A DNA stretch of 64,000 nt from Candidatus Poribacteria bacterium (lineage in GTDB: Bacteria; Poribacteria; WGA-4E; PCPOR2b), in assembly GCA_965218095.1 (NCBI GenBank), contig OZ244587.1:1728001-1792000 (forward strand), read 5' to 3'. The position numbers and the translations under genes were made by a program. The notes beneath the pieces were generated by a model. That model saw only the letters and a program-made list of their open reading frames with translations, was not told where the DNA came from and made no database searches. Shown here in pieces: positions 41,912-58,413 of this stretch (within the stretch, counting starts at the first letter, position 1; every line of letters starts with the position of its first letter).

Positions 41912-43765
41912 ATGTCTTCAAAGTGGATGTTTACCGGAGCTCTATTAACCGTTGCTGTCATATTTCTTATCCCTCAAGCCAACGCACAGCAACGGTTCTC
42001 TGAAGCAGTCGGGCCAGTTTCTATTCAAGCGGTCACCTCTACGACGCCGCTGATTGTTCCTTACATTATATGGGGCGGCGAATCTGCCCTATTCTATGCT
42101 AACGGTGGCTTACTCACTAAACCTGGGTCGATCATGGCAAACCAGGGATTAAATCTGAAGCTAGTTCCCGGCGATAATTTTCCACAGCAGGTGAGAGACT
42201 ATTTATCCGGGAAATCCCCACTCCTTCGCGGAACATTTAGAATGATTGCTCAAGCAAGTGAGGTGATTGGGCGCGATGCGAGGACGAAGGGGGTTGTATT
42301 TGGTCAGTTAACGTGGTCTGCTGGCGACCATTTCGTTGGGAGGCCTAATATCAGAAGAATTTCAGACTTGCGCGGGAAAAAAGTTGCAATCCAAAAAGGC
42401 GGCCCCCATGTCGGTATGCTTTACGACATGTTGCAGACAGCAAGGCTTTCCAAGTCTGATGTGACGATTGTCTGGGTTGATGACCTGACAGGGCCAAATG
42501 GACCTGCAGAGCGGTTCAGGCAGGATGCGACAATCTCTGGTTGCTTCGTGATTACGCCTGACATGATCGGTTTAACCGGCGGGCATCAAAACACGGGCAG
42601 TGGGGCGGAAGGAACGATCAAAGGCGCTTATGTGGTTGTCAGCACAGCAACGCTTTCACGCTCAATCGCGGACGTCTATGCTTGCCGAAAGGATTTCTAT
42701 GACCCCAATAAGGGGTTGATTGAGAAATTCTTTGCGGGATACTTGAAAGGAGTGGAGGAGGTCATCCAACTCAAGAAAGCTTATGAGTCGAGAGGTTCTA
42801 AGGAATATATGGCGCTGCTTCAGATGATGCAGGATATTTATGGAAAGGACGTGCTTCCAACGCTTGAAGAAGATGCACACGGTCTGATTGCAGACTGTAC
42901 ATTTGTCGGCCAACCCGGTAACGTTGCATTCTTTAACGATCCAACAAATACGGTTGCGGGATTTGAAGGCTTTAATAAAGCGGGATTGGACATGGCAGTG
43001 AGCTGGGGATTCGCCAGGGTGAGACATAACCTGATCCCCTCCGACCTGAATTATAGTTCATCAGCTTTCACGAAACTTCTCGGGACAACGATTACTGCTC
43101 CTGTCCAGCGCAAGCGTTTTAAGGAAGAAACCGTCAGAGCGGAGATCGAATTGTTTAACGAAGAGGAGGTCCTTGACGAGAAGACGCTTATCTCGTTTAC
43201 CATTCAGTTTAAGCCAAACCAGGACACATTTAGCGAAGCCGAATATCGTGAAGAATTCGACAGGATAGTTGAACTTGCGTCAAAGTATGGAAATGCAGCC
43301 ATTGCCATCAAAGGACATACAGATCCGTCAAGAACCCTGATGGCAGCGGTTAAAACCGGATTGCGGCAAGGGATTTTAAGGCGCACCGGAACAAAAGGAA
43401 ATTACGAATATTTCATGAACGGCAAATCCTTTAGCTTGGAAAATACAAAAAATCTGATCCGATTAATCCAGCAGAAGAAGTTTGGCGATGCGAGTGATTT
43501 TGAGGGGCCCTATCAAATCATGAGAGCGGGGTTAAAACTCTCCGAACAACGTGGGGAAACCGTCAAACAGGCAATCGTTGTTTATGCCCGTAAGAAAAAC
43601 GTCCGAATTGAACCTGAGCAGATTGTCCCTGTTGGTGTGGGCATCAGAGAGCCGTTGATTGCCAAACCCTCTAATCCAGCAGAAGCGGCGAAAAATCGGC
43701 GTGTGGAGTTTGCCCTGATTAAGGTTTCGGCTGAAGCTGTTGTCGCCACTGATTTTGATTTCTAA
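41912..43765 (+). CDS. Exported NMT1/SsuA-like substrate-binding protein fused to an OmpA-C (peptidoglycan-binding) domain
   Basis: AGGAGG RBS; signal peptide ..QANA; WSAGD and LRGKKVA motifs; OmpA motifs IKGHTD, LSEQR and NRRVEF. Confidence 0.8.
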   Translation: MSSKWMFTGALLTVAVIFLIPQANAQQRFSEAVGPVSIQAVTSTTPLIVPYIIWGGESALFYANGGLLTKPGSIMANQGLNLKLVPGDNFPQQVRDYLSGKSPLLRGTFRMIAQASEVIGRDARTKGVVFGQLTWSAGDHFVGRPNIRRISDLRGKKVAIQKGGPHVGMLYDMLQTARLSKSDVTIVWVDDLTGPNGPAERFRQDATISGCFVITPDMIGLTGGHQNTGSGAEGTIKGAYVVVSTATLSRSIADVYACRKDFYDPNKGLIEKFFAGYLKGVEEVIQLKKAYESRGSKEYMALLQMMQDIYGKDVLPTLEEDAHGLIADCTFVGQPGNVAFFNDPTNTVAGFEGFNKAGLDMAVSWGFARVRHNLIPSDLNYSSSAFTKLLGTTITAPVQRKRFKEETVRAEIELFNEEEVLDEKTLISFTIQFKPNQDTFSEAEYREEFDRIVELASKYGNAAIAIKGHTDPSRTLMAAVKTGLRQGILRRTGTKGNYEYFMNGKSFSLENTKNLIRLIQQKKFGDASDFEGPYQIMRAGLKLSEQRGETVKQAIVVYARKKNVRIEPEQIVPVGVGIREPLIAKPSNPAEAAKNRRVEFALIKVSAEAVVATDFDF

Positions 43766-43768
43766 GAA

Positions 43769-44218
43769 ATGATGAAAGTGACAAATCAGATGATTCGTAA
43801 ATTGCTTCCAAAGTTAATCTCCATAGAAAAAGAGATTTCTGACGAGAAGGGGAGTTTTAGACTCTTTGGGATTTTCCTGCGTGAGGGGCAACCGCATCGA
43901 GCATGGGATCTTGTTATCACGGTCGACTGGCTGGATACAAGAACTCTGGAAGCGGATCGGATTTTTACCAAAGAGATCCAATCTCGACTTGAACGCGAGA
44001 AGTTTCTCACCCTAGCAGTGATACTGATTTTAGAACCTGACTACCCCTTCGCCAAAGAGATGAACCCTGAGTTCGATGTCGAGCATGGAGACCTTGAGTT
44101 TACCGATTACGATTTCGATGGCATGGTCTTTGAGCGTATGCATATCATTACCTCAAAAATGGGAAAACGGATTGACACAGATCTTGTTGTAGATTTCAAT
44201 AAGGAAGTCAAACCATGA
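43769..44218 (+). CDS. Hypothetical protein
   Basis: Closely coupled to both neighbours; LFGIFLRE..WDLVITVDW. Confidence 0.6.
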   Translation: MMKVTNQMIRKLLPKLISIEKEISDEKGSFRLFGIFLREGQPHRAWDLVITVDWLDTRTLEADRIFTKEIQSRLEREKFLTLAVILILEPDYPFAKEMNPEFDVEHGDLEFTDYDFDGMVFERMHIITSKMGKRIDTDLVVDFNKEVKP

Positions 44219-45153
44219 AGAACGCAAAATCCATCCTGTTCATCATCCTTCTACTTTCCATACTTCTTGTCCCAGCAGCCTCATCTGATGAAGGCGTGCA
44301 CACGGATAATATCGTGATTATTCTGGATGCTTCGGGGTCAATGGGCGACAGATTCAGCAGCGACCCGACTAAGACGAAGATGGAGGCAGCAAAAGAAGCG
44401 CTCCGGGAGGTATTATTGAAAATCCCTGATGGCACAAACATAGGCCTGCTTGTTTTTAGCGGTTCCAATGTCCGAAGTGAATGGGTTTATCCGCTTGGTC
44501 CCAAAAACGATGAGAGGCTGATGCAGGCGATCAATCTCCCCAGACCTAGCGGAGGGACGCCGCTTGGGAAGTATATTAAGATTGGCGCAGATCGTCTCTT
44601 GGAACAACGCGAAAAACAGTACAATTACGGAAGCTATCGGCTACTGACTGTCACAGACGGAAAAGCAACCGACCCGGAAAAGGTCGGGGCATATACCCCA
44701 GAAGTTATGGATAGGCAGATTAGGATTGATGTCATCGGGGTTGATATGAAACAAGATCACATGCTGGCGACAGTTGTCGATAGTTACCGCCGAGCAGATA
44801 ATCCGGGACAGTTAGTCAAGGCGGTTTCGGAAATCCTTGCTGAAACCTCGGATACCGGAATGGACATAAGTGGCGAGGATGTGTTTGAATATATTGCCCC
44901 CCTTACGGAGGAGGTTGCATTATCGTTAATCACAGCAATCACAAAGGTTCCCGAGAATAACCCAATTGGCGAGCAACCGATAGCACCCAAGTCAAAGGCG
45001 ATGACGACACAACCCACAAGTAGCGCAGGGCAGGGAGTTATTGATAACCCTCCACCAAGGAAAAAACCGTGGAGACTTCTTGTCCTCATCGTGATCGGCA
45101 TCTTGGTGTTTGCAGGCATCTGCCTATCACGTCGAAGGAGTCATGGAAGTTAA
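44215..45153 (+). CDS. Exported vWA-domain protein with C-terminal membrane anchor
   Basis: MIDAS DASGSM, GGTPL and VTDG; signal peptide; C-terminal TM followed by RRR. Confidence 0.88.
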   Translation: MKNAKSILFIILLLSILLVPAASSDEGVHTDNIVIILDASGSMGDRFSSDPTKTKMEAAKEALREVLLKIPDGTNIGLLVFSGSNVRSEWVYPLGPKNDERLMQAINLPRPSGGTPLGKYIKIGADRLLEQREKQYNYGSYRLLTVTDGKATDPEKVGAYTPEVMDRQIRIDVIGVDMKQDHMLATVVDSYRRADNPGQLVKAVSEILAETSDTGMDISGEDVFEYIAPLTEEVALSLITAITKVPENNPIGEQPIAPKSKAMTTQPTSSAGQGVIDNPPPRKKPWRLLVLIVIGILVFAGICLSRRRSHGS

Positions 45154-45238
45154 TGCCCATGCCTGAGATCGACTATTGTCAATTGCCGCTTGCCGATTCA
45201 AGCGATAACACACCAGCAATATGAAAGGAAAATGCACG

Positions 45239-46858
45239 ATGAATGAATCTTCGAGGAGTGACTCTTCAAAGAAGGCACGCAGCAAAATCGTCATGGTCTT
45301 TAGCTGGTTGGTTATCCTTGGGATAGCGGGGGCTATCTATAAGTTCGTCATTGAACCGAGAATGAAGGGGAAGACTGTAGCTAATACTAGGACGCCCAGT
45401 CGATATACGCACGAGATCAAGATCGCCCATGACTCCTTCTCTGGTTACGCAATTCTTCGGTCCCCATCCGTTCAGAATCTGCTGGAGCGCCAAGAAATTA
45501 AGCTGACCTTCCTGGATGATAAGGCAGATTACGTTCAGAGAATGAAAAATCTACGCAGTGGCAAGATCCAAATGGCGGTCTTTACCATTGATGCTTATAT
45601 AAAGGCAGGCGATGCGATTGGGGAGTTTCCGGGTTCGATCGTGCTTGTCATTGATGAGACAAAAGGCGCGGATGCCATCGTTGCTTACAAGCAGGGCGTC
45701 CCGCAAATCCCCAAACTGAGCAACCCCGCTGCAAAGATTGTATTAACGCCGGATTCCCCCAGTGAAACCCTTGCCAGAGTTATGATAAACAAGATGAGCT
45801 TCCCCAGCCTGCCGCGAGACTGGGAATTGGAAGTAGACGGCGCCGAAGATGTGTACAAGAAGCTAAAGGCTGGGAATCCAAATGAACCGAGAGCTTATGT
45901 GCTGTGGGAGCCATTTGTTACAAAGGCATTGGCGCTCGACGGCGTTCATATCCTCCTGGACAGTTCAAAGCTCAAAGGATACATCGTCGATGTGCTGATA
46001 GCCCAGCGACAGTTTCTGACTGAGCAGCCTGAATTGGTGACGGCCGTTGTACAGGCATATCTGCGGGCGCGTTATGATTATGCCAATCAGCCGGATGGTC
46101 TGATAAACCTTGTTCTGGAGGATGCCAAAAAATACGGGGACTCGCTGAGGAGAAACGAAGCTGAAAATCTGGTCAATGGAATCGAATGGCGAAACACCAT
46201 GGAGAATTACGCCCATTTCGGCGTCATTTCCGGACAGGAAGCAAAGAATACAGATCATCTCGAAGATATGATTGCGAAAATTATCAGAGTGCTGGTTCAA
46301 ACGGGCGCCGTTGCAGGCGATCCATTAGCGGGAGATTATGGGCAAATTTTCTACGATGGCATCTTGCGATCGCTTCGCCGTGATAAGTTTCATCCAAGCG
46401 TAGCGACTTCAAGTGGCTTAGATGATATTGTTCTTGGCGATTCTACGACGACCGCGCTCCCGGAGGTGACAAGCGCCAAAGCGTTGAGCAATCTCTCGGA
46501 TTCTGAATGGAGTCGGCTCGTTCCTGTTGGCACAATGAGGTTTGACCCCATCCAATTTGGTCGGGGAAATGCCAGAATTCAGCGGAATAGTCAACGGGCG
46601 TTGGCAAGACTCGCCGAAGACCTCGACTCATTTCCGCAATGGTATCTCAAGGTCGTCGGGCATACCAGACGCGAAGGTGACCCAGAGGCAAATCGCATTC
46701 TTGCCCAGCAGCGGGCGGAGGTTGTTGCGGCGTTTCTGATGAGCAAAGGAATCAACCCCCATCGCATGAAGTTCGTTGCAAGTGACCGGCCGCCTGAAAA
46801 CGCAGTGGGGGGAAAAGCGCAAAGCGTGACTTTTGTCCTTCTGGAGAAACCGTACTGA
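45239..46858 (+). CDS. Membrane-anchored substrate-binding protein fused to an OmpA-C domain
   Basis: N-terminal TM; DSFSGY, ETKGADAIV, WEPFV and IVDVL motifs; OmpA VVGHT..NRILAQQRAEVV. Confidence 0.8.
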   Translation: MNESSRSDSSKKARSKIVMVFSWLVILGIAGAIYKFVIEPRMKGKTVANTRTPSRYTHEIKIAHDSFSGYAILRSPSVQNLLERQEIKLTFLDDKADYVQRMKNLRSGKIQMAVFTIDAYIKAGDAIGEFPGSIVLVIDETKGADAIVAYKQGVPQIPKLSNPAAKIVLTPDSPSETLARVMINKMSFPSLPRDWELEVDGAEDVYKKLKAGNPNEPRAYVLWEPFVTKALALDGVHILLDSSKLKGYIVDVLIAQRQFLTEQPELVTAVVQAYLRARYDYANQPDGLINLVLEDAKKYGDSLRRNEAENLVNGIEWRNTMENYAHFGVISGQEAKNTDHLEDMIAKIIRVLVQTGAVAGDPLAGDYGQIFYDGILRSLRRDKFHPSVATSSGLDDIVLGDSTTTALPEVTSAKALSNLSDSEWSRLVPVGTMRFDPIQFGRGNARIQRNSQRALARLAEDLDSFPQWYLKVVGHTRREGDPEANRILAQQRAEVVAAFLMSKGINPHRMKFVASDRPPENAVGGKAQSVTFVLLEKPY

Positions 46859-46890
46859 ACCTTGCGGAGGTTTCAAACCTTCGCAGGGTT
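46858..46890. repeat. REP-like palindrome
   Basis: AACCTTGCGGAGGTTTCAAACCTTCGCAGGGTT. Confidence 0.7.
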
Positions 46891-46911
46891 GAAGAGCAGG
46901 AGGCGAGGCAA

Positions 46912-47688
46912 TTGATCGACCGGAAGAAGTTAAGGAAAAAAATTCTCCTCAATCTCATAGGAAACTCCGCCGTGATCTTTCCCTTTGCCGGCGGAGCCAC
47001 CTTAGCCTTTGTAACGTGGTTTTTTAATCTTGAGCCGAGTATTCTATTTCTGTTTGTCAGCGGCGTCGTGGGGATTCTGGGCCCCGTAGGCGGGTTGATT
47101 ACGAAATGGACAACGGGCTTAGACAACATCTCAAAGCAGGCATTAAGGGAGTTGCAGGAGGAAGTTCATAAGGAACAGGAGCGTCAACTTGATGCTTTAC
47201 GCAAGCAGCTTACAGCGGATGGGGATGCCAGAACTGAAAGGATGCTTGCCGATCTTCGCACGTTGCATCAATCCTTTAAAGCAGAAGTCAATGAAAACAC
47301 ATGGTCATCATCTATCCCGTCGAATGTCGCCTTTGAGCTTGCCTACAAAGTTGAAGCCCTGTTTCATGAATCGGTAAATTGCTTAAAAGAAACCCTCACA
47401 CTTCGAGAAAAGGCGAGAAATACCGCAACGAAAACAGCAAAATCGCCTCTCTTACAACAGCGAGAACATCTGATCGCAGATGTTCAGGAAACCATCGCGC
47501 AACTCTCCAAAATCTACGGAGAGGTACTGACACTTGATACCAATAGTGATGAAACGCAGCTCTCAAGACTCAGAAATGAGCTTGATGAAAATATAGAGTT
47601 TGCCAAAAAAGTTGATCAGACAATGTGTGAGCTTGAATCACGCGATATCCATGAACCGAGTAAATATGATCAGTATATTGAAAAGTGA
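46912..47688 (+). CDS. Two-TM protein with long helical/coiled-coil cytoplasmic part
   Basis: GGAGG RBS and TTG start; two hydrophobic helices, then heptad-rich helices. Confidence 0.7.
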   Translation: MIDRKKLRKKILLNLIGNSAVIFPFAGGATLAFVTWFFNLEPSILFLFVSGVVGILGPVGGLITKWTTGLDNISKQALRELQEEVHKEQERQLDALRKQLTADGDARTERMLADLRTLHQSFKAEVNENTWSSSIPSNVAFELAYKVEALFHESVNCLKETLTLREKARNTATKTAKSPLLQQREHLIADVQETIAQLSKIYGEVLTLDTNSDETQLSRLRNELDENIEFAKKVDQTMCELESRDIHEPSKYDQYIEK

Positions 47689-47773
47689 GCCGAGCTATTC
47701 GCTCGTTTTAAGGCATTCAGGGCGTCAAGCCAACTGAAGCATAAAATGAACCATCCCGAAGGAGGAGCATGAG

Positions 47774-48424
47774 ATGGACTGGCTACACGCAATTTACATT
47801 GGCTGCACAGTGTTTTCAGTGGGAATTACCGCGCTTGATTTCTTAGGATTTCTTGGCGGAAAGCAAGATGGCGATAGTAGTGATGGAGACGCCCACGTCG
47901 GCGAGGTTGATAGCGGCGAGATGGACCTCGGCGGCGATCATTCCGTCGAAGGCAACCATGCCGGAGAAACGGCGTCGGACGATGTTTCTCATGCCGCTGG
48001 TGGGGTTGCGGTGCTGTCCGTGCTTTCTTACTTGCGCAGCTTCATCTATTTCTGTCTCGGTTTTGGACCTACAGGTTGGGTTGCTATGGCAATGGGAAAT
48101 AGTGCAGGACAGAGCCTTATTTGGGCGGCGCCGGCTGGCGTGGTCACCTTTGTGTTAGCACGCGCGTTCTTCCGTTTCCAGCGCACCGATACGGATTCAT
48201 CCCTGCATTCAGAAGAATTGCTCTTCCAGCAAGCAACTGTAATCGTTCCACTGACACACAACACGATGGGCAAAGTACGCGTGCAAGTGGGTATGAATGT
48301 GACCGAACAATACGCGCTTGCTACCGAACCGAATGCCCAGTTTGAGAAAGGGGATACGGTTTGGGTTACCAATATCACAGATGAGTGTGTATACGTTGAG
48401 CACGAAAACATGGGAAAGGAGTAG
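47774..48424 (+). CDS. NfeD/YuaF-like membrane protein with C-terminal OB fold
   Basis: Three TMs, acidic His/Gly loop, ATVIVPL..GKVRV..GDTVWV; directly upstream of SPFH genes. Confidence 0.8.
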   Translation: MDWLHAIYIGCTVFSVGITALDFLGFLGGKQDGDSSDGDAHVGEVDSGEMDLGGDHSVEGNHAGETASDDVSHAAGGVAVLSVLSYLRSFIYFCLGFGPTGWVAMAMGNSAGQSLIWAAPAGVVTFVLARAFFRFQRTDTDSSLHSEELLFQQATVIVPLTHNTMGKVRVQVGMNVTEQYALATEPNAQFEKGDTVWVTNITDECVYVEHENMGKE

Positions 48425-49912
48425 ATGAAAATGGATGCAATTACTCAGTACAGCGGGATTGTCGGTGGTGTTCTCGCAATCATCGTATTCCTCGTATTGA
48501 TTGCGATTCTACGTGCGTTTATTCGTGTCTGTCCCTCAAATCATATTCTGGTTGTCACCGGAGGAACAGAAACCGTGGTTGAAGGCAAAAAGTACGGCTT
48601 CCGTCTCCAAAAAGGCGGCTGGACTTTTGTCATCCCATTCATTCAGAGTGTCCAATTCATTGATCTCACAATCATCCCGATTAACGTACAGGTTGATAAT
48701 GTGAATTCTGCGAATGGCATCACTGTCGGATCCGACGCAACAGCGTGTGTTTGCATTGACGACATGGATGAAGTGCTGCTCTACAGTGCTGTGCAACAAC
48801 TGCTTGGCAAATCACGTGCGCAGATCCAAGAACAGATTCAGCAGACGATGATTGGCAACTTCCGCGCCACACTCAACAAAACCACACCATTGCAGGCAAT
48901 TGGGATGGTCGAGAGCGTGGAGGGCATAGATGAGCAGGAGTTGACTGAAACCACTGCCACGCTGAGTAGGCTTCCTTCAACAGAGGAAACCGTGGAAGGT
49001 GCAGGAGATGCGAGTGATCAACGTCCGAGTGAAACGCCTCAAACGATAGATGCCGAAGGCGAGCGGGCAATCTTCCGAAATCTTTTGCTTGCGGATTGTC
49101 GCGAGGACTTGAGCGCTTTTGGTATGAATGTGGTCTCTGTATCGCTCCAACGCATCTGGGATACTTCCAACTACATCGCAAATCTTGCGAACAAAACCCT
49201 TTCGCGCAAACGTCAGGAGGTGGAGATCGAGGAAGCGCGATTGCAGGCGCGTGCCGAGCGCGCGGAATCTGATTCAAAACGTCGGATGTTAGTGGCTGAA
49301 AACCGCGCGAACGAGAAAATTCTTCAAGCTCGACAAGACGTTGAACTATTTCGCCGCCAATGTGACGCAGCAATCCACCGCGCTAAACTTGAGGCCGATA
49401 GTGCCATTGTCAAGGCGCATAGTGCAGGGCAGCGGCGGGAGGAAGAGATCACAGCGGAACTTCAAAAGCTGAGGAACAGTTCTGAAGTTATTGTGGAGGC
49501 TGAAGCCAAGCGCCGTGCTGCGGAGATTCTGGCGGAGGGCGAAGCAAAAGCTGTTGAAATTGTTCAACAGACGCAGAATGAGCTCCTCCAACAGAAAGTG
49601 GATTTACTCAAGAACACCGAAGATACGGGTAAAATTGCGTTGTTCATCACGCAGTTGCCACATCTTTTTGACTCGTACCGTACACATGCGGAATCATTGA
49701 AGGTCGACAATCTGCTGGTGCTCAACGAAGAAGATGGCTTCAATAGCGCTGTCAATCGAGGCCCATCGGCATTTGTCGATTTCTTGAAATGCTTTGAGCA
49801 GGGGTTTGGTATTAGCATAAGAGATCTGATCACCCGGAGGCAAACGGAAAATTCCGTCGCAACTGAAGAGGTAGCAGCCACCGCCCAGATCCAGGAAGGA
49901 GGCGTATCATGA
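48425..49912 (+). CDS. Flotillin-like SPFH protein 1
   Basis: TM, RVCPSNHILVVTG, GGWTFVIPFIQ; AEA-rich coiled coil. Confidence 0.88.
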   Translation: MKMDAITQYSGIVGGVLAIIVFLVLIAILRAFIRVCPSNHILVVTGGTETVVEGKKYGFRLQKGGWTFVIPFIQSVQFIDLTIIPINVQVDNVNSANGITVGSDATACVCIDDMDEVLLYSAVQQLLGKSRAQIQEQIQQTMIGNFRATLNKTTPLQAIGMVESVEGIDEQELTETTATLSRLPSTEETVEGAGDASDQRPSETPQTIDAEGERAIFRNLLLADCREDLSAFGMNVVSVSLQRIWDTSNYIANLANKTLSRKRQEVEIEEARLQARAERAESDSKRRMLVAENRANEKILQARQDVELFRRQCDAAIHRAKLEADSAIVKAHSAGQRREEEITAELQKLRNSSEVIVEAEAKRRAAEILAEGEAKAVEIVQQTQNELLQQKVDLLKNTEDTGKIALFITQLPHLFDSYRTHAESLKVDNLLVLNEEDGFNSAVNRGPSAFVDFLKCFEQGFGISIRDLITRRQTENSVATEEVAATAQIQEGGVS

Positions 49913-51165
49913 TACTCTTCCTCATCATACTAGGCCTACTAATCGTCGTTACGCTGATTCTTCAGCTTGTGATGAAGATGAAGCTCATACCCCCAAGCGA
50001 ACTTGGAGTGGTGCACGGTAAAGGCGGTAGCTTCAGTACTTTCCGAGGGGGACGCGTTTTCGTGTTTCCACTAATCAACCGCTTTAACACAATGGATTTA
50101 ACGCCTCAAACGACGACGGTTGTCGTGGAGTCGGCCATTGCCGAGGGAATTGTCCCCTTGACGGTCAAAGCAACCGTCAGTTATGCAGTGGCAAAGACGG
50201 AGAAAGGCCTCGTCAATGCCGTCAAACGCATCTTGAACATGACCAAGAACTGGTCTGAACTGCAAGCCATTGCCACCTCTATCATTGAAGGGCATCTTCG
50301 AGACTCGATTGCAGCAATGACTCCCGAAGAGGTGATGAGCCAAAAAGACCAGCTTATCCAAAATATGATCAAAGTCTGCAAATCCGATCTGGAAGGCATC
50401 GGTATGGAAATCACGACAATGAATATCGCCGATGTGGATGACCATCGGCTCGAAGGGGTTGAAGAACCTGATCTGTACATCGCGCTGCTCAAGCGGATAC
50501 AAACTGCCGACGCCGAAGCACAATCCCGCGAGGCGCAAGCAAATGCCCGTTCCGCTGCAAAAGAGCAAGCGGAGGAACGACGCGCCGAAGTCGTGGTTCG
50601 TGAGCTTGAAAATGAGCATCAGGAAATTGAGGCAGAGACTAAAGTGAGGGTCGCTGAAGAAAATCAGCGTGGAGCCGTCAATGAGCAGGAAGAAACCCGC
50701 AACGCGGACTCTGAGGTAGCGGGTATCGAGGCGCAGATTGAGGCGGAAAAACAGCGTATTGAGATGGTACGGGCAAGATGTGAGGCAGATACCATCGTTC
50801 CTGCTGCTGCGACAAAAGAGAAAATGATTCAAGAGGCAGAAACTCAAGCAGCGACGATCCGCGGACCGGCACAAGCTGAACTCACACAACTCAAGCAGAC
50901 AATCGAGATTCTATGTTCGGCAGGCGATCCAGGGCTGACAACCTACATCATTGAGAAGTTTAGGGATTTAATCGAACCGTTCGCCCAAACACTCGATCTG
51001 TTTCCCGTCGATCAGATCACTGTCATTGCCGGTGACCTTCACCAGAATGGTCCAATCTCTGCCATTCATCCAAATGCCATTGACGCCGAGAAAAATCGTC
51101 GGGTTGAGGAGGCGTTGGCAGTCGTTGCAGCGGTTGCTAATGCCCCCTCAACCCCATCGGAATAA
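49909..51165 (+). CDS. Flotillin-like SPFH protein 2
   Basis: GGRVFVFP, IEGHLRDSIAAMTPEEV, DLEGIGMEI; EA-rich coiled coil; ATGA overlap. Confidence 0.88.
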   Translation: MILFLIILGLLIVVTLILQLVMKMKLIPPSELGVVHGKGGSFSTFRGGRVFVFPLINRFNTMDLTPQTTTVVVESAIAEGIVPLTVKATVSYAVAKTEKGLVNAVKRILNMTKNWSELQAIATSIIEGHLRDSIAAMTPEEVMSQKDQLIQNMIKVCKSDLEGIGMEITTMNIADVDDHRLEGVEEPDLYIALLKRIQTADAEAQSREAQANARSAAKEQAEERRAEVVVRELENEHQEIEAETKVRVAEENQRGAVNEQEETRNADSEVAGIEAQIEAEKQRIEMVRARCEADTIVPAAATKEKMIQEAETQAATIRGPAQAELTQLKQTIEILCSAGDPGLTTYIIEKFRDLIEPFAQTLDLFPVDQITVIAGDLHQNGPISAIHPNAIDAEKNRRVEEALAVVAAVANAPSTPSE

Positions 51166-51309
51166 GGAACTTATCAGTTCAGCAGTTCATTGATTCATTC
51201 ACATTTTACACATCAGGTTTCACAGTTTATGTTAAGGTATAATGCAACATGGTCCATTTAACCGAGGGAGGTGCAATATTATCACGAGACTCAGTTGGGT
51301 TGTGGCTTT

Positions 51310-51371
51310 GCTGTGGGAGCGAGATCCTGCTCGCGATAGAAGAATCGAGGCAGTGATGTCTCTCCCACAGC
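51310..51371. repeat. GTGG-type REP doublet
   Basis: GCTGTGGGAGCGAGATCCTGCTCGCGAT...ATCGAGGCAGTGATGTCTCTCCCACAGC. Confidence 0.7.
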
Positions 51372-51424
51372 ATTATGCACTACCCTCATTTAACCCCATG
51401 ATTACTTGAAAGGAGAAAGACAAA

Positions 51425-52252
51425 ATGGCAAGCGGGTTTGGAAGATTCTTCAAAGCGATTTGGTATACAGTCACGGGACGTGCTCATGAGCTTGCTGACA
51501 GCATGATGGAAAACCCTGAAGCTGTCCGGGGAGCTTATGAAGATATTATTGCAGAGAAGAAAGAGAACATCCAGCGCTATAAGAATGCAATCGGTCAACT
51601 GATCGCCTTAGTCAAGCAAAAGGAGGGAACACTTGACAAGCTGACGAGAGATGTAGAGCGGCTGGAACAGCTTAAAACCGGCGCCTTAGCCAAAGCGAAG
51701 AGTGTCGCCGGCGACCTTCAGAGGCAGGGACAAACTCAAGAGGATATTAAAATGAATCCAGAGTATATGAACTGTGTCGCCGCCTACAACGATTTTAGTT
51801 CAACGCTGGAAGAGAAGAACGCTCGAATCGAAGAACTTGAGGCGGACATCCAACACGCTCAAGGGGACATTGACAATCATAAGGTTCAGATTACGGCATT
51901 GGGCAAAGATTTGGATAAAATCAAGGGAGAACAGGCAGAAGCGGTCGCCGATCTGATTACTGCAAGGGAGCAGGAACAGATTGCTGACATGGTTTCTGGC
52001 ATAAGCACTGATGGCACATCGGCGGAACTTGCCAGAATGCGAGACATCCGGCAAAGGGCGAAGGGCAGAACGCAAGTCGCTCAAGAGTTAGCTGGCACCG
52101 ATTCTCGTGCGGAAGAGGAACAGTTTCTTGCGGCTGCCAGGGGCTCGGCGGCGACGGATGAGTTTGACGCTTTGATCTTTGGCGCCGAACAAACCGATCA
52201 AGTCGAAATCCAGAAAACTCCAACCGATTCGGACTCTGAACTTCCTGTCTAA
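51425..52252 (+). CDS. PspA/IM30 (ESCRT-III superfamily) protein
   Basis: Amphipathic N-helix GFGRFFKAIW, ENPEA motif, long coiled-coil hairpin, C-terminal DEFDAL. Confidence 0.75.
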   Translation: MASGFGRFFKAIWYTVTGRAHELADSMMENPEAVRGAYEDIIAEKKENIQRYKNAIGQLIALVKQKEGTLDKLTRDVERLEQLKTGALAKAKSVAGDLQRQGQTQEDIKMNPEYMNCVAAYNDFSSTLEEKNARIEELEADIQHAQGDIDNHKVQITALGKDLDKIKGEQAEAVADLITAREQEQIADMVSGISTDGTSAELARMRDIRQRAKGRTQVAQELAGTDSRAEEEQFLAAARGSAATDEFDALIFGAEQTDQVEIQKTPTDSDSELPV

Positions 52253-52393
52253 TTTGGTGGGTGGTGAGTGAGTGGACGTGAAAGTGAATCTGATTTTCAA
52301 CAGAATCGCCCATCACCATCCACCACCTCAAACGCAAAGCATTTATCGAAAAGATAATTCATGTCTATAGTTCTATTGGAGAGGAGAATCGCA

Positions 52394-53497
52394 ATGGGGA
52401 ATTACCGAAAGTCCATTTCAATTTCAGTCGTTTTTTGTACGATTTGCTTTTTCATGCTAACACCGATGACTTTGGCACAGAAGGCACCAACGTTCAGCCT
52501 TGCTTGGAGCGAATATCCGTCATGGAGCGTCTTCGGCGTCGCTCATGAATTTAAACTCATTGACGGCAGAGAAGGGGTGATGGAGGAAATCGAAAAAAAG
52601 TGGGACGTTGATATTAAGTTAGAAGAGCTCGATTATGATTCGTGCATGGCGCTTTATGCAAGCCTCGGCTGCGATGCCGTGTGTCTCACAAATATGGACT
52701 CGCTAAATCCAGCGTTGAGTCGTCAGTCAGTTGCCATCCTTCCCACGAGTACAAGCTATGGGGCTGATGCCTGCATTGTCGTCGGTGGCATTACGGAGAT
52801 GATTCAACTCAAAGGGGTTGATGTCTACGGTCTTGCAAAATCGGTGTCTGAGTACTGCTTTGTACGCAATCTTGAGGTGAACAACCAAAACGAAAGAGAC
52901 TACAAGTTTACCAATATGGATCCAGCCGCCGCTGCACTCGCAATGCAGCAGGGACAAAAGGGCTATCAAGCCATTGTCGTCTGGAATCCATTTGTGCTTG
53001 AGACGCTGAATAAAAGAAAAGATGCGCGAGTCCTTTTTGATTCAACCGCTATTCAGGGGGAGATTATTGATATGGTCGTCATGGCTCAGGCTTCCCTGGA
53101 TAAGCCCGGAGGCGATCAGTTCGCCGCCGTTGTTATCGAGGTTTTCTATAGAATTAACGAGATGCTAGCCGATCCGGACCCTGAACTTGCAAACGATACC
53201 TTGATTGCGATTGGAGAGAAGTTCTCCCATCTTGGCTTGAAGGATATGAGAAAGGTGATGCGGCAAACGCTGTTTTACAAAACGCCGAAGGATGGAAAAG
53301 GCTTGTTTGTGAGTGACAAACTTCCCAAGATTATGGAGAAGGTCGTGGGTTTTTGCGTCAGCCATGATATTGTTGATCAAAAGCCGACGATTGCTTACGG
53401 CCCCAAAGGCCAGGCACCAGATGTTAACTTACGGTTTGATCCGATGTACATTGAAAAATATGTGAAGAGTTATGATCAGAGACCCAATTTCAAATAG
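52394..53497 (+). CDS. ABC transporter substrate-binding protein (NitT/TauT class)
   Basis: Signal peptide; AWSEYPSW, TNMD, TSYGADA, VWNPF and GEIIDMVV motifs. Confidence 0.85.
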   Translation: MGNYRKSISISVVFCTICFFMLTPMTLAQKAPTFSLAWSEYPSWSVFGVAHEFKLIDGREGVMEEIEKKWDVDIKLEELDYDSCMALYASLGCDAVCLTNMDSLNPALSRQSVAILPTSTSYGADACIVVGGITEMIQLKGVDVYGLAKSVSEYCFVRNLEVNNQNERDYKFTNMDPAAAALAMQQGQKGYQAIVVWNPFVLETLNKRKDARVLFDSTAIQGEIIDMVVMAQASLDKPGGDQFAAVVIEVFYRINEMLADPDPELANDTLIAIGEKFSHLGLKDMRKVMRQTLFYKTPKDGKGLFVSDKLPKIMEKVVGFCVSHDIVDQKPTIAYGPKGQAPDVNLRFDPMYIEKYVKSYDQRPNFK

Positions 53498-54272
53498 ACT
53501 GCGGTTTTTTTTTGGCTTCCTCTCCGTTGCTATACTAATCTGCGGTTACTTCTATCTGTCCCACCGGCAGCACCTGAAAAACCCCGCTGATACCACCATG
53601 CCAAGTCTTTCTCAACTGAAAGATGGAATCAAAAAGATTACCACACCCCACAGGCGTTCAAAAGAGATATGGCTATTTGAAGATCTGAAAGCCACAGGTC
53701 TGAGGCTGGCTCTGGGGCTTTCAGCAGGTATCATCTCTGGAGTCGTCGTCGGGCTAATTATGGGGTGTTTTGCTGTTGGGGAGGCGTTTTTTCTTTTTCC
53801 ATTGTCATTTGCGTCAAAACTCAATCCAATCGCCATGCTTGCCGTATTTTTCGTCATGGTCGGTACCGACACGGAGCTATATGTTGCGATGATTGCTCTT
53901 GGCGTGATGCCAACTTTTGCGCAGACCATTTATTTGGCGGCAAAGAATGATGTCCCTGAAGAATTAATTCACAAAGCCTACACGTTGGGAGCAACACACA
54001 TTGAAGTCATTCTGAGCGTTATCTTTCGGCAGATTTTTCCACGAATTCTCGATTCGATTCGTCTCCAGCTTGGTCCGGCGCTGGTCTATCTTATTGCTGC
54101 CGAAATGGTTGTCGGACACGTCGGCTTTGGCTACAGAATCAGACTTGAATACAGAATTCTCAATATGAATGTTGTGTATCCATATATTGTGCTATTGGCA
54201 TTGTTCGGTTATGCCGCTGATTATGGACTGCGATTTCTACAAGGGAAATTCTTCCCTTGGTATGGGCGCTGA
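53472..54272 (+). CDS. ABC transporter permease (NitT/TauT class)
   Basis: KAYTLGA EAA loop and LIAAEM..GFGYRI; about six TMs. Confidence 0.9.
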   Translation: MIRDPISNRLRFFFGFLSVAILICGYFYLSHRQHLKNPADTTMPSLSQLKDGIKKITTPHRRSKEIWLFEDLKATGLRLALGLSAGIISGVVVGLIMGCFAVGEAFFLFPLSFASKLNPIAMLAVFFVMVGTDTELYVAMIALGVMPTFAQTIYLAAKNDVPEELIHKAYTLGATHIEVILSVIFRQIFPRILDSIRLQLGPALVYLIAAEMVVGHVGFGYRIRLEYRILNMNVVYPYIVLLALFGYAADYGLRFLQGKFFPWYGR

Positions 54273-54343
54273 TAGTAAATAAGTTCATTGGTTCAGGAGT
54301 ACAGAAGTTCATTCACGCCTTACGTTTCGCTATGCTTTACCCC

Positions 54344-55293
54344 TAATAGACGATTACAAGATGTCGGATAAACTTAGTCATCATCAGGGAATCACGGGGG
54401 TTGGCTTTGTGCAAAAGCAGATGGGATAAGGCTTTGAACCGGTTGTCGGCATCGAAAATCTCAGATGGATTGGACAGTTGGGCCGAAAAGCGGTATGCTC
54501 CCTGGGATTGATAACTCAAAAATTGAGACAGAGGAGAATACCAATGAATTGTGAGTATCATAACCTACCGCCCACCTTTCAGCAAGAGTTTTTCGATCTG
54601 CTTGATGAAGTTCAAACCCAAGGCATAGAGCCCGTAGTGTTAGAAGCATTGTTAATTGCCCCATTGGTCAGTGACCACATCGCCGAAGTGGAAACCGTTG
54701 CCGTCCAACGACTAGATACGTTGCGTGAGGCGTTGAGAACAAATGCCATCCCAATAATGAGACTATTGAGTCGGCTCTCTTTCTTGCTCTTTTTGGAATA
54801 CCTCACTCGATTTTTTTCGCAAAACAACCCTGGCAGAAAACGCGATGGCGAATTGTCCTTTGTGGGGATGATTCACTTTTGGTCCATGCCGAAGAGAGCC
54901 ATCAACCCGATGTGGTCAACATTTGGAGTACCCTTTATAAGACCTACCGCAAGGCACATGATCTCATTGTTTTGGGAATCACCATCGGTTCCAAGACAGG
55001 AGCGTTCTTCTTTCCACTTTGGGTGGAATTGTGGCGTCAACCGAGCCAAAGAAAACAGCCCCGTCCCCAACGAATGGCGGCTGCGCTATTGCGGCTGAAC
55101 CAACAGGTTAAAGATACCGGGTTGAGCTTAGAAGGCATTGATTTTGCCACCGACAATGGATACCTCTCGCCAACTGTTGCTAAAGCGGTTGACGCATCTG
55201 GTTTGATTTTGACGACCCGGTTCAGATCCAATCAACCGGTGACACCCCTTGATGGTGAATCCATCGTGATTCGGGATTTGTAATCGTCTACTA
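54344..55293 (+). mobile_element. Internally deleted DDE IS (IS701/IS4-like), frameshifted transposase fragment
   Basis: 16-bp TIR TAATAGACGATTACAA / TTGTAATCGTCTACTA; GDDS and ATDNGY acidic motifs. Confidence 0.7.
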
Positions 55294-55310
55294 CTAAGAA
55301 AAGGCAAATT

Positions 55311-56237
55311 ATGGAAACTGTACTTGAATGCAAGGGGGTTACCCATTATTTTGGTGAAAATCGGGTGCTTCATGACATCAACCTTCAAGTGGTTAGAGGG
55401 GAGATCGTCTCATTAGTTGGACCGAGCGGCTGTGGGAAATCCACTTTGCTTCGAGCAATCTTAGGAACCCATCCGCCACATAAAGGCGAAATATTGGTCA
55501 GTGGGAGGTCCGTCAAAGGTGCCGGAAGGGACAGGGGAATTGTTTACCAGCGTTATTCACTCTTTCCATTTCTGACAGCGCAGAGAAATGTGACACTGGG
55601 ATTGCTTTTTGATCAGAATTCACTTTTTGACAGGTTTGTTAAGTATTTTGTCTGGAGGAAAGAGAAAAAAAGACACCTTGACGAAGCTACGGCGCTGCTT
55701 CAAAAATTAGGACTTGGTGATGCACTGAACCTTTATCCATATCAGATGTCAGGAGGGATGTGCCAGCGGGTTGCAATCGCCCAGGCCGTTATCATGAAAC
55801 CCCAGATTCTCCTTCTGGATGAACCTTTTGGTGCCCTTGATGAGGCAACTCGCGAGGAACTTCAGAAAATGCTGCTGACTTTCTATGCAGAGAACCTTGC
55901 GGCGATGAATAATGGAGAGCAACCCCCGTATACGATCATTATTGTCACCCATGAACTTAATGAAGCCATCTACGTTGCAGATCGAGTGGTTGCGCTTTCG
56001 CAGTATTGGAACTGGCGAGAAAAGGAATTTGAAAACTTCCCCGGTGCCACAATCGTGTATGACCAAATGGCGCCTGCTTTTGCGCCGACTGATGAGATCA
56101 ATTACGTACAGTTTCTTGAACAACGGACAGAGATCCGGACAGCGGCATTTGATCCGAATTATCGCCAGGAACGGGATGACTTCAATAAATTCTGGGGACA
56201 GGTACATGAAAATGAAGAGGAGGTGTTTGAGCGATAG
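55311..56237 (+). CDS. ABC transporter ATP-binding protein (NitT/TauT class)
   Basis: GPSGCGKS, MSGGMCQR, LLLDEPFGALD and VTHE motifs. Confidence 0.95.
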   Translation: METVLECKGVTHYFGENRVLHDINLQVVRGEIVSLVGPSGCGKSTLLRAILGTHPPHKGEILVSGRSVKGAGRDRGIVYQRYSLFPFLTAQRNVTLGLLFDQNSLFDRFVKYFVWRKEKKRHLDEATALLQKLGLGDALNLYPYQMSGGMCQRVAIAQAVIMKPQILLLDEPFGALDEATREELQKMLLTFYAENLAAMNNGEQPPYTIIIVTHELNEAIYVADRVVALSQYWNWREKEFENFPGATIVYDQMAPAFAPTDEINYVQFLEQRTEIRTAAFDPNYRQERDDFNKFWGQVHENEEEVFER

Positions 56238-58054
56238 CTGTCAAAAGTCCGAAGTATGAATTTCTGTCTCAAGCGGGAACGATAATAAACGCAGGGACCT
56301 CGAAAAGCATCATCCTTGCAGGAAATATTCATGACCTTTTCTTTTTTGATGATGGAGGGGGAAATGAGGGTTATGTGCCACTCGTTTCACTCCTGACGCG
56401 CACCTGGGATGTGCCCGGGTTTATCCTGATGGTTTATGAACTGAACGGTCCCATCAGATTTTTGGGAGCGAGCGACAAGGAAAAGCTGAGAAAGACGTTC
56501 AGTTTATGGAGACAAGATACCGATCAAAACCTGCTCTCCAAAGACACCATTCGTTATCTCATTCCGGGGAGGGGAACAAAATCTGCAGAAGAGCAATTCG
56601 ACACATATCTGAGGAACTCTATTGGAAACCCAACTGTTGCCCTTGAATTGCTCAGGCAACTATGTCTGCTTTCCCGAGGAACTGATGAGTTTGGCACAAA
56701 ATTGTTGAAAGAAAAGTTGTTGATTATTGTTGAGGCGGCTGATATGTTAATGCCGGAGGGAGAAATCCCGAGACTCTCCCAGGCGGATCGGCATAGGGTA
56801 GGCATTGCGCACGATTGGATTCTTGATCCGGATTTCATGAGTGGGAAAGATGTTGTCATCTTTATCACAGAATCCAAAAGTTTGATGAACTCAAGAATCA
56901 CGAGGCTTCCTCAAGTAGCAACCGTTGAAATTCCGTCGCCCGGTGTAGATGAGAGAAAACATTTTATTTCCCGGTTTAATAGAACCCAAAAACCCAAAGG
57001 GAAGGGGTTGCGTCTCTGGGGTACACAGGAGCAAGTCGCCATGCTGACAGCGGGGCTTTCTATCCATGCGTTGCGACAACTCCTCATCACGGCTTGTTAT
57101 TCCGGGGAAAAACTCCAGCCCCAAGATGTGATTCAGAAAGTTGGCGATTTTATTCAAGGACAAATGGGCGAAGATGTTGTTGAATTTAAGAAACCGGCTC
57201 ACGGCTTGAAAGACGTGGTCGGAAATCAACGATTGGTTGCTTTCATTCAGACTAGGCTTCTGCCGCGTCTCACCTCAACCGGTCCGGATGCAATTGCCGG
57301 TGCTGCGGTTGGTGGTCCCATTGGGAGTGGAAAGACATTCATCTTTGAGGGGCTGGCCGGGGATCTGGACATTCCCGTTTTGGTCCTCAAAAACATCAGA
57401 AGCATGTGGTTTGGCCAAACAGACGTGATCTTTGAACGCCTCAGGCGTCTACTCGCGGCACTCGTTAAAGTAATGATCTTTGTTGACGAGGCGGATACCC
57501 AATTCAGTGAAATCGGCAGAGATGCTCACGCCACTGAGCGCCGGTTAACAGGAAAGATACAGGCAATGATGTCAGATCCGCAGCTCAGGGGCAATATTAC
57601 GTGGTTACTGATGACCGCCCGAATCTACAATTTGTCGCCCGATCTCCGACGGGAGGGAAGGGTCGGTGATATGGTCATACCGGTTCTTGATCCCAACGGT
57701 GAAGATCGGAAAGCGTTTGTTAAATGGGCAATTCGTGACGTTTTTAACGGCTCCGCCAGCGATGCGGTTATTGAAAAAATGTCGCAAATCACGGAGGGAT
57801 ATTCTGCGGCAAGTTTTGCCTCACTTCGCTCTGACTTGCGTGCAGAAGGCGTCCCCTTATCAATCGAGCAAATTCTTGAAATCGCTTCTGACCGGATTCT
57901 CCCGGACATTGGTCCTGTTAGAAGATATCAAACGCTGCAAGCATTAATAAACTGCACACGGAAATCGTTACTTCCAGAAGACTATTCTCACCAAATGCGG
58001 GCTGAATGGATGGCGGAAGTCAGAAGGCTTGAACAGATGGGGGTCGGGCGTTAA
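56234..58054 (+). CDS. AAA+ ATPase with degenerate N-terminal AAA module and active C-terminal module
   Basis: GPIGSGKT, IFVDEAD and PDLRREGR motifs; frame open back to ATA at 56234 after GAGGAGG (IILAGNIHDLF); start uncertain. Confidence 0.85.
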   Translation: MAVKSPKYEFLSQAGTIINAGTSKSIILAGNIHDLFFFDDGGGNEGYVPLVSLLTRTWDVPGFILMVYELNGPIRFLGASDKEKLRKTFSLWRQDTDQNLLSKDTIRYLIPGRGTKSAEEQFDTYLRNSIGNPTVALELLRQLCLLSRGTDEFGTKLLKEKLLIIVEAADMLMPEGEIPRLSQADRHRVGIAHDWILDPDFMSGKDVVIFITESKSLMNSRITRLPQVATVEIPSPGVDERKHFISRFNRTQKPKGKGLRLWGTQEQVAMLTAGLSIHALRQLLITACYSGEKLQPQDVIQKVGDFIQGQMGEDVVEFKKPAHGLKDVVGNQRLVAFIQTRLLPRLTSTGPDAIAGAAVGGPIGSGKTFIFEGLAGDLDIPVLVLKNIRSMWFGQTDVIFERLRRLLAALVKVMIFVDEADTQFSEIGRDAHATERRLTGKIQAMMSDPQLRGNITWLLMTARIYNLSPDLRREGRVGDMVIPVLDPNGEDRKAFVKWAIRDVFNGSASDAVIEKMSQITEGYSAASFASLRSDLRAEGVPLSIEQILEIASDRILPDIGPVRRYQTLQALINCTRKSLLPEDYSHQMRAEWMAEVRRLEQMGVGR

Positions 58055-58271
58055 TATCAGTAACTCGCCTGACAAACCTTGCAAGCAGTGATTAACATGC
58101 CTATTTTATTGAACTGCCGAACTTTCATCTTTCACTTCCCCAACTCTCGATTCCGATAGAGAAGTGAATCTACCTGCTCAAACATCTCCCCACATTTGAT
58201 GAGATTCCCCAAGCGTTCTCCGAAGGTTATCTCTAAGAGTTGGACTGGTATCTAATATCAATTCTCAGTTT

Positions 58272-58388: not shown

Positions 58389-58413
58389 AAACCCGAAACG
58401 GTATTATTCCATA

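Follow-up and report, generated by a model that had tools for sequence, protein, structure and literature searches.

Gene content and conserved order of the locus

The subject of this analysis is a gene cluster in a 64,000-nucleotide stretch from the genome of a sponge-symbiotic Candidatus Poribacteria bacterium (contig OZ244587.1 of assembly GCA_965218095.1, a single contig of 6.35 Mb); this whole stretch is called the window, and the coordinates below refer to it. From position 41912 to 58054 the window carries 13 open reading frames (ORFs, here g01 to g13), all on the + strand, co-oriented and in several cases overlapping or abutting. Nine of them form an operon with a conserved order: a substrate-binding protein (SBP) with an OmpA-like domain, a VWA protein, a membrane-anchored SBP-OmpA protein, a helical protein with two transmembrane (TM) segments, a PspA-like protein, an SBP, a permease, the ATPase of an ATP-binding cassette (ABC) transporter, and a double AAA ATPase. 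To these nine genes there are three local additions, i.e., g02, a flotillin triplet (g06 to g08), and an inverted-repeat element of ∼950 bp. This anatomy, with the history of insertion that goes with it, is held here with high confidence.

The original prediction for this DNA, made from the sequence without database searches, had listed 13 co-oriented genes. All of these ORFs were found, most of them with the domains it had named (Pfam and NCBIfam scans), and the overlaps and abutments are as described. One correction concerns the permease and ABC ATPase genes: 1038 bases without a credible gene (54273-55310) lie between g11 and g12.

With regard to the envelope side, the first core gene, g01 (41912-43765, +), encodes a secreted SBP-like protein of the NMT1/SsuA type (Pfam NMT1, E 3e-7), and its start at 41912 gives it a signal-peptide-like hydrophobic N-terminus. 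The C-terminus is OmpA-like, with 20.3 bits against the Pfam cut-off of 27.2 and partial matches to NCBIfam OmpA-type models over residues 587-646. Its orthologues, at 51-81% identity, are also the first gene of the operon in other phyla. The second core gene, g03 (44215-45153, +), specifies a periplasmic VWA protein (Pfam VWA/VWA_2, E 3e-12) that carries a signal peptide and, C-terminally, a TM anchor, the hydrophobic segments being at residues 6-24 and 287-305. In the third, g04 (45221-46858, +), an N-terminal TM anchor (residues 26-44) is followed by an SBP-like part with SsuA/NMT1-type matches and by an OmpA peptidoglycan-binding domain that scores 48.1 bits, above the cut-off of 27.2. Both g03 and g04 have syntenic orthologues. 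Two SBP-OmpA fusions had been proposed; Pfam bears this out for g04, and the OmpA part of g01 stays under the threshold.

The fourth core gene, g05 (46912-47688, +), encodes a hydrophobic hairpin (residues 20-62) and a cytoplasmic helical domain, and is a candidate membrane anchor for PspA. In full operons it is always immediately 5' of pspA. No Pfam family matched this protein, and a profile search of the PDB gave nothing below E 0.049. The nearest named Atlas cluster is that of the mycobacterial PspA partner Rv2743c (PspM), with a score of 0.86, which is a lead only. The idea that g05 is itself a membrane-anchored relative of Snf7/PspA was not supported, the hhalign probability against the PspA family being 0.9%.

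Downstream of core gene 5, the PspA-like g09 (51425-52252, +), come the parts of an importer. Core gene 6, g10 (52361-53497, +), encodes its periplasmic SBP (NCBIfam TIGR03427, E 2.4e-42, 145 bits against a cut-off of 334; SsuA_fam is also matched) and has syntenic orthologues at 56-82% identity. Core gene 7, g11 (53472-54272, +), is a TauC/SsuC-like permease (Pfam BPD_transp_1, 48.3 bits; NCBIfam TauC, E 2e-19), and core gene 8, g12 (55311-56237, +), is the transporter ATPase (Pfam ABC_tran, E 1.5e-33), with NCBIfam matches of the nitrate/taurine/sulfonate type. The SBP, the BPD_transp_1 permease and the ABC_tran ATPase together make up an importer of the NitT/TauT type, at a level where no equivalog cut-off is reached. 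The three SBP-like proteins (g01, g04 and g10) are not recent paralogues, since pairwise BLAST finds a single weak stretch among them (g04 against g10, E 7e-5 over 63 residues). Hydrophobicity windows mark signal-like starts on g01, g03 and g10 and nothing hydrophobic on PspA or the AAA ATPase. From the hydrophobic segments it follows that g03, g04 and the binding and VWA domains should be periplasmic, and the helical domain of g05, PspA and both ATPases cytoplasmic.

How widely is this order kept? Two sets of loci were collected, and their gene content was read by tblastn with all 13 window proteins. On the genome side, loci were seeded with the AAA ATPase (10-sequence alignment A2), and the 80 loci are the best of 438 AAA relatives. 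On the reciprocal side, metagenome contigs were seeded with PspA, which gave 166 relatives, and 80 of these loci were retained. The sets are partly redundant, L184 and L074 being the same contig.

The nine-gene order recurs in Acidobacteria, Planctomycetes, Verrucomicrobia, Desulfobacterales, Hydrogenedentota and the nearest Poribacteria. All nine core genes stand in the listed order in 8 of the 80 genome loci (L009, L077, L078, L080, L082, L083, L086, L087), including a Poribacteria locus (L009), an Acidobacteria locus (L077), and others from CSSED10-310 (L080), Planctomycetaceae (L082), Desulfobacterales (L083) and Limisphaerales (L086). Loci L010, L084 and L085 show the same gene order up to their contig ends. 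Among the metagenome loci with both flanks (n = 18), nine carry the complete set in order over 10.7-11.9 kb, two have eight genes, five the PspA-AAA pair alone, one the pair with g05, and one g05 and PspA only.

The two genes at the center of this operon are kept far more often than the rest. A pspA gene is found upstream of the AAA gene on the same strand in 72 of the 80 genome loci; in six of the remaining eight, the locus reaches less than 2.6 kb upstream. Seen from the other side, the AAA gene is present in 22 of the 25 metagenome loci that extend at least 6 kb downstream of PspA. Most Poribacteria loci hold the PspA-AAA pair only, and g05 was detected in 28 of the 80 genome loci. Two loci (L067 and L069) keep six genes and miss the ABC module, and in L074 an insert of 8 kb separates the ABC ATPase gene from the AAA gene. 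The PspA-AAA pair is the near-constant core of the operon.

A few loci of these sets deserve a separate remark. L078 is labeled as a Candidatus Bathyarchaeia archaeon and carries a complete nine-gene operon of bacterial type, with 44-58% identity to the window proteins; this is either a gene transfer or a binning error. In the Poribacteria operons L067 (8156-9829) and L013 (7925-9820), which miss the ABC module, an ORF of 557-631 residues without a Pfam family lies between pspA and the AAA gene. Three further ORFs, small and unassigned, separate g05 from pspA in L013. These extra ORFs may be further partners of the pair.

As an observation made by computer, the operon is already known. A passage of Ravi, Anantharaman, Aravind, Gennaro et al. 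(mSystems 2024, PMC11237479) has bacterial PspA occasionally associated with a double AAA+ protein whose N-terminal copy is inactive, and section 18 of that paper describes longer PspA/double-AAA+ operons that also contain genes for an ABC ATPase, for a permease and for a PBPB-OmpA protein, for which ATP-dependent membrane remodelling tied to solute transport is the functional guess. All five components of that description are present and co-oriented in the window, and the role proposed in section 18 is the same as the one proposed below. The Poribacteria copy is a further member of this family with lineage-specific insertions: it adds the NfeD-like/flotillin/flotillin triplet, the 149-aa gene g02 and the inverted-repeat element. 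The main-text passages of Ravi et al. on these operons make no mention of the VWA gene, the nine-gene order, the PspA tail, the pore loop or Poribacteria, and the supplements may hold more. PspA together with band 7/FloT and NfeD in Acidobacteriota appears in a passage of Popp et al. 2022 (PMC9239133), and the link of PspA to SPFH proteins, exemplified by PspA-YdjGHI of B. subtilis, is also in print (PMC8581546). The combination is less novel than first supposed: the operon and the PspA/flotillin/NfeD link were both described in these sources. Our searches found no experimental work. Literature joining Poribacteria and PspA was looked for and none was found.

Local additions to the operon

The first of the additions is g02 (43769-44218, +), a hypothetical protein of 149 residues for which no Pfam, NCBIfam or PADLOC family was found. 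It has homologues in 3 of 30 relatives, where they are never beside g01/g03, and is a lineage-specific extra outside the conserved operon.

The second is the triplet. Its first gene, g06 (47774-48424, +), encodes an NfeD/YqiJ-like membrane protein with three hydrophobic segments. There is no Pfam match to it even at E 10, no PDB profile match, and no membership in the NfeD/YqiJ profile. The Atlas leads to NfeD_TM/YqiJ score 0.92-0.94, on clusters of which only 12-14% of the members carry the family. In all eight relatives inspected the g06 orthologue is first in the triplet, before the SPFH pair. Its identity as NfeD, as first proposed, has this position and the Atlas leads in its favor and the family profiles against it. 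The flotillin-type genes are firmer: g07 (48425-49912, +; SPFH/flotillin-like protein a) and g08 (49909-51165, +; protein b) have hydrophobic N-termini and score 65.8 and 61.8 bits for Band_7, with a cut-off of 23.6, which confirms them as SPFH proteins, and the FloT equivalog model gives 57 and 73 bits, respectively, against a cut-off of 700.

Do these genes belong to the operon? According to the original prediction, all 13 genes would form a single envelope-spanning machine, and there are points in its favor. The genes share one orientation and leave little space between them, the triplet occupies precisely the interval between the two-TM protein and PspA, where it has taken over the former pspA leader, and PspA-SPFH links have been published (PMC8581546 and PMC9239133). 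The comparison among genomes tells a different story. No tblastn match to g02, g06, g07 or g08 was found in the 160 related loci (80 genome, 80 metagenome), and the closest operons, L009 and L010 (80-88% identity), pass directly from g05 to pspA. The prediction had staked itself on co-conservation in other genomes; four of the 13 genes (g02, g06, g07 and g08) fail here, and the idea of one co-conserved envelope unit survives for the nine genes that keep their order and strand in several phyla.

The triplet has a life of its own elsewhere. Orthologues of g07 are present in 13 of the 31 genomes searched (G000 included). In the 20 kb around this orthologue in eight relatives, a self-contained g06-g07-g08 triplet was found in 8/8, the g08 orthologue (69-93% identity) always following g07. 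No operon gene is near these free-standing triplets in the eight relatives, the other match there being a generic ABC protein with 26% identity. The distance from the triplet to the AAA gene is 2.0 Mb in G012, 1.3 Mb in G008 and 1.4 Mb in G004, and two genomes (G026 and G023) have the triplet with no AAA orthologue, only generic AAA matches of 25-27% identity.

The bounds of the insertion can be read at the nucleotide level. Window positions 47767-51132, a relocated block of 3.4 kb, align by blastn with the free-standing triplets at 80-84% identity, and the similarity ends at exactly those bounds. The window sequence between g05 and g06 matches, by alignment, the L010 spacer between g05 and pspA together with its ribosome-binding site. 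These two alignments indicate that the block landed just in front of pspA, in the ancestral g05-pspA spacer, and it is because of this insertion that the window operon measures 16.1 kb, compared with ∼11 kb elsewhere. The flotillin/NfeD-like block is a later local insertion, outside the conserved unit, and an obligate 13-gene machine is an improbable reading of the locus.

Transcripts were also considered. Four metatranscriptome runs from one sponge study contain 22-29% of the sampled words, and contigs of these RNA libraries cover many parts of the cluster at 95% identity or better, with pspA covered in 4/4 runs. They bridge g04/g05 (46727-46990), g06/g07 (48194-48438), g08 and its downstream spacer (51155-51405), and pspA and its spacer (52040-52340); the second and third of these junctions lie within and at the end of the triplet and are a further point for the 13-gene machine. 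Parts of the cluster, for example positions 43768-44334 in 4/4 runs, have no RNA-contig cover, an absence that contigs cannot demonstrate. Just upstream of g01, 39 bases (41730-41770) are skipped by the contigs of all four RNA runs and 41573-41809 in two of them, either because the population varies in length at this place or because of an assembly effect linked to repeats. Runs from vent, seawater and sediment (X14-X16) gave small shares only, from which no habitat claim is drawn.

The third addition is the element that splits the permease from the ABC ATPase gene. It runs from 54344 to 55293 and ends in inverted repeats of 16 nt (54344-54359 and 55278-55293) that are 94% complementary. The frames of the gap 54273-55310 are decayed and match no Pfam family, and the gap has no plasmid match. 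In the nearest relatives, L010 and L009, the permease-ABC ATPase gap is ∼100-140 nt and the element is absent. A part of 237 nt is 70% identical to another place in the same genome (G000:C1:5996806-5997042). The element is read as a small decayed insertion element.

The PspA-like protein and the tandem AAA ATPase

The product of g09 is very probably a divergent PspA/IM30 protein of the ESCRT-III superfamily. It is assigned because of sequence profiles, the fold searches not being decisive. The PspA_IM30 profile (PF04012) is matched colinearly over its positions 3-206 of 220 with E 5.4e-8, at 33.1 bits, 0.8 bits under the Pfam cut-off of 33.9. Seven of 16 clade members match the profile at E 1e-3 or better (best E 8.6e-10). 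Three canonical PspA genes exist elsewhere in the host genome, and hhalign places the clade profile on them over 178 columns (E 1.6e-4, probability 50%), with a longer hairpin tip. A single-sequence AlphaFold2 model (pLDDT 74) has helices at residues 5-26, 31-100, 112-192, 199-224 and 227-251, an order that resembles a0-a5, and the N-terminal helix is moderately amphipathic (hydrophobic moment 0.35-0.48, protein median 0.23). The top three Foldseek matches are Vipp1, at only E 1.6e-3 and none at E 1e-3 or better, and the VIA-wide comparison gives E. coli PspA 1-144 with Z 11.5, a value shared by many unrelated hairpins. The proposal that the ORF at 51425 encodes a PspA/ESCRT-III protein has thus gained a full-length profile match with a score just under the threshold, and remains ambiguous in the fold searches.

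The clade also has a conserved C-terminal region. In 16 PspA sequences from several phyla, ELAGTD, EF(L/I)..AR and EFD.LI are kept, invariant or nearly so, and then a variable acidic linker leads to the last three residues, LP(E/V). By its pattern of conservation, this end may be a recognition tag. The genome has a fifth, weak match to PspA_IM30 at G000:C1:2739279-2739446, beyond the window (31 bits, profile positions 2-57); it falls inside an open frame of 1172 residues.

The last core gene, g13, runs from 56234 to 58054 (+) and begins in an unusual way. The start had been set at GTG 56375. Its relatives have ∼45 extra N-terminal residues with a conserved motif, and 47 in-frame codons upstream of that GTG are conserved in other phyla, so that the start was corrected to ATA 56234. 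The codons in frame from 56231 contain no ATG, GTG or TTG, and the protein aligns from residue 1-5 with orthologues of other phyla. A GGAGG stands upstream of this ATA, which overlaps the TAG of the ABC ATPase gene. The isoleucine-codon start suggests, from the sequence, a deliberately weak or coupled initiation of the AAA ATPase. Among the Poribacteria-type loci (L009-L072, L075), the AAA start position is ATA in 46 of 63, ATC in 13 and ATT in one, with ATG in three relatives; GGAGG or GGGGG is present 7-10 nt upstream, and mostly there is no in-frame canonical start before the next stop.

The 607-residue AlphaFold2 model of g13 (50-sequence alignment) has a pLDDT of 93.1 and a pTM of 0.89. 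Over its full length, Foldseek aligns it with p97/Cdc48, Rix7, AFG2 and NVL across ∼645 columns at E 1e-17 to 3.7e-18; for p97 the E value is 3.7e-18 and the TM-score 0.53, normalized to the query. From this full-length alignment g13 is taken to be a tandem (type II) D1-D2 AAA ATPase of the classical clade. The two halves have fared differently. Similarity to solved structures at the profile level is limited to D2 (positions 334-529; VCP-like ATPase, E 5e-51). Of 50 relatives, 46 have a Walker A motif in D2, and none has one in the N-terminal half. In D2 of g13, Walker A (GPIGSGKT) is at 362, the pore loop (MWFG) at 392, and Walker B (MIFVDE) at 415. The model and these motifs predict a dead D1 and an active D2, and by its motifs g13 appears equipped to act as a threading unfoldase. 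The family is of moderate breadth: 222 representative clusters reach E 1e-30 or better.

The original prediction had cast this protein as the counterpart of Vps4. This holds in the sense of "works like" and fails as family membership. Pfam and NCBIfam scans show no MIT domain in g13; its first 300 residues are modeled as an AAA-like α/β domain that aligns with D1 of p97 and Rix7, and two AAA folds stand where Vps4/CdvC has a single cassette, although D2 is of the classical clade. With the ESCRT-III/Vps4 systems (CdvB/CdvC, Snf7/Vps4), the locus shares a gene that is very probably of the ESCRT-III superfamily beside a classical-clade AAA gene with an aromatic pore loop, as well as a weak NCBIfam match to CdvC (E 4e-5), and recycling of a polymer by threading would be the natural common mechanism by analogy. 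It differs from them in the AAA protein, i.e., no MIT, two AAA folds instead of one and a dead D1, and in the predicted polymer, which is of the PspA and not of the Snf7 branch. With Cdc48/p97/VAT, AFG2 and Rix7, g13 shares the D1-D2 architecture over the whole length and, in D2, Walker A/B and MWFG. In contrast to Cdc48/p97, it lacks the N-terminal adaptor-binding domain (the model has no separate double-psi-barrel N domain, and D1 starts near residue 10), Walker A of D1 is missing in 50/50, and the sequence likeness is in D2 only. In short, g13 is neither a member of the Vps4 family nor a Cdc48 orthologue.

What, then, is the substrate of this motor? That the AAA ATPase acts on PspA is, in our judgment, an evenly balanced proposition. 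It could instead be a Cdc48/Msp1-like extractor acting on membrane proteins that are damaged or wrongly inserted, such as the anchored VWA, SBP-OmpA and two-TM proteins, with PspA sealing the membrane rather than serving as substrate. The closest relatives of g13 in structure and sequence, p97/Cdc48, AFG2, Rix7 and Msp1, are unfoldases or extractors, the MWFG pore loop suits a threading motor, and three of the operon's products are single-pass or hairpin membrane proteins whose cytoplasmic parts are short. However, when the operon shrinks, as in most Poribacteria and in 5 of the 18 flanked metagenome loci, the AAA gene retains pspA as its companion rather than the genes for the membrane proteins, and the strictly conserved C-terminal tail of PspA has no obvious role in sealing. 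An extractor of this kind is rated as rather unlikely. Complex prediction of the AAA (alignment A3) with PspA (alignment A4) returned a score of 0.00 in both runs, without controls, and is neutral on contact.

A possible PspA polymer cycle and the surroundings of the operon

How might the parts work together? The reading that we moderately favor is that of a nine-gene envelope operon with an ATP-driven cycle of a PspA polymer at the site of wall-tethered binding proteins and an ABC importer. PspA would polymerize in the manner of ESCRT-III at the inner membrane, on its cytoplasmic side, where the cytoplasmic helical domain of the two-TM protein g05 would probably dock it. A hexamer of the AAA ATPase would recycle the polymer by threading its subunits through the D2 pore, and may engage the conserved C-terminal tail of PspA (EFDxLI ... 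LP[EV]) for this purpose. The wall-tethered binding proteins, the VWA protein and the NitT/TauT-type importer could couple maintenance of the membrane to the binding or uptake of a small solute. As for the flotillin triplet, it would be an optional add-on that may help to organize PspA at the membrane and is not needed by the system.

Several observations weigh against this reading. No experimental study of the operon or of any member was found in the literature. The PspA-like protein scores just short of its family threshold, and structure comparison cannot set it apart from long helical hairpins, the coiled coils of Smc and dynein outranking E. coli PspA. The AAA ATPase is closer to Cdc48/p97, Rix7 and AFG2 than to Vps4, which makes extraction of membrane proteins an equally natural task. 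The pair is not invariable: L081 has the AAA gene without PspA in a locus of 15.5 kb, and from the PspA side there is no AAA gene within 10 kb in L119 (g05 and PspA), L155 and L184. Given that most Poribacteria keep the pair only, the link to the transporter is dispensable. The score of the g10 SBP is well below the cut-off of the nearest NCBIfam model, so the solute is not assignable. The RNA contigs do not establish a single transcript or its strand, and DNA carry-over is possible. One detail softens the conclusion on the flotillin block. In the three genomes of a related genus (L099, L102, L104) the triplet follows a canonical pspA of the same strand, at distances of 1.1, 1.7 and 6.5 kb. 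These three relatives speak for the 13-gene machine: as a second, independent neighborhood, together with the window, they put the triplet beside PspA-family genes at least two times in the phylum, and a repeated neighborhood of this kind fits the published PspA-SPFH links. With those PspA-SPFH/NfeD systems (YdjGHI of B. subtilis; Acidobacteriota, in the sources cited above), the window shares a pspA gene near SPFH genes and small membrane anchors; in the window, however, the triplet is a recent arrival, no partner of the YdjG/H type is present, and PspA belongs to the AAA-linked clade.

A different emphasis would place the point of the operon in solute uptake or periplasmic sensing, with PspA-AAA as a generic stress buffer, or in an anti-phage or toxin-resistance island. 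Three SBP-type proteins, the permease and the ATPase account for 5 of the 9 core genes, and an identity of 51-62% between distant phyla suggests horizontal spread, as in accessory islands. Yet it is the ABC module that is most often missing, as in L067 and L069 with their six genes and in most Poribacteria with the pair only; and besides the small inverted-repeat element, no integrase or mobile-element gene is present in the window region. PADLOC (10 of the 13 proteins) recognized no defense system and gave only weak generic matches, the best to the coiled coil of LmuB (E 1.3e-5) and others to TerY, IetA and LeoBC at ∼3e-4. Taken together, we consider uptake or defense as the main purpose to be unlikely.

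More speculative, and highly improbable in our estimate, is a cycle of ligand-coupled inward budding of the membrane, i.e., an endocytosis-like uptake on a bacterial ESCRT-III. The wall-tethered binding proteins and the VWA protein would capture periplasmic cargo; PspA would polymerize on the two-TM anchor and pull the inner membrane inward into the cytoplasm, the topology being the one normal for PspA/Vipp1 rods; and the tandem AAA ATPase would strip the coat and allow the cycle to repeat. Planctomycetes, Verrucomicrobia, Poribacteria and Acidobacteria are groups known for unusual membrane invaginations, and, if budding were true, the spread of the operon among these four groups would fit this feature.

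With regard to the disassembly of bacterial ESCRT-III-like polymers such as PspA and Vipp1, a passage of a 2025 review (PMC7619361) has a Vps4-like ATPase as apparently absent in bacteria. This operon family offers a candidate pair, composed of a PspA clade with a strictly conserved tail and a dedicated, predicted tandem AAA unfoldase, almost always adjacent. The PspA-AAA core is now separated from the optional modules (two-TM anchor, SBP-OmpA/VWA and ABC importer) and from the local flotillins, which drop out of the minimal model, and two to four genes are thereby prioritized for experiment.

Another comparison concerns regulation. The Psp and Lia systems (PspFABC in E. coli; LiaIH-LiaFSR in B. 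subtilis) share with the window an effector of the PspA family and a small membrane partner encoded just upstream. Unlike them, the cluster has no family match to PspF, PspB, PspC or LiaRS, nor to transcription-factor families, among its ORFs (Pfam/NCBIfam), the rest of the genome not having been searched for these. The same limit applies to the original statement that pspF, pspBC and liaRS are absent, which is borne out for the cluster.

The flanks of the cluster are occupied by queC (+), a small unassigned ORF (40929-41426, -) and rpsT (-). A scan for promoters and terminators over 41000-58800 gave 18/18 sites, with 19.5/17.9 expected, and carries no information on the operon boundaries. Adjoining rpsT, an ORF of 98 residues (58703-58999, -) matches the first ∼83 of the 267 positions of a Dam methyltransferase model and is probably a truncated gene. 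Beyond rpsT and this dam fragment, ∼1 kb past the end of the cluster, two neighboring ORFs (59030-60225, -) have helix-turn-helix matches of the ParB type, the first of them also matching DUF7119 and DUF6921.

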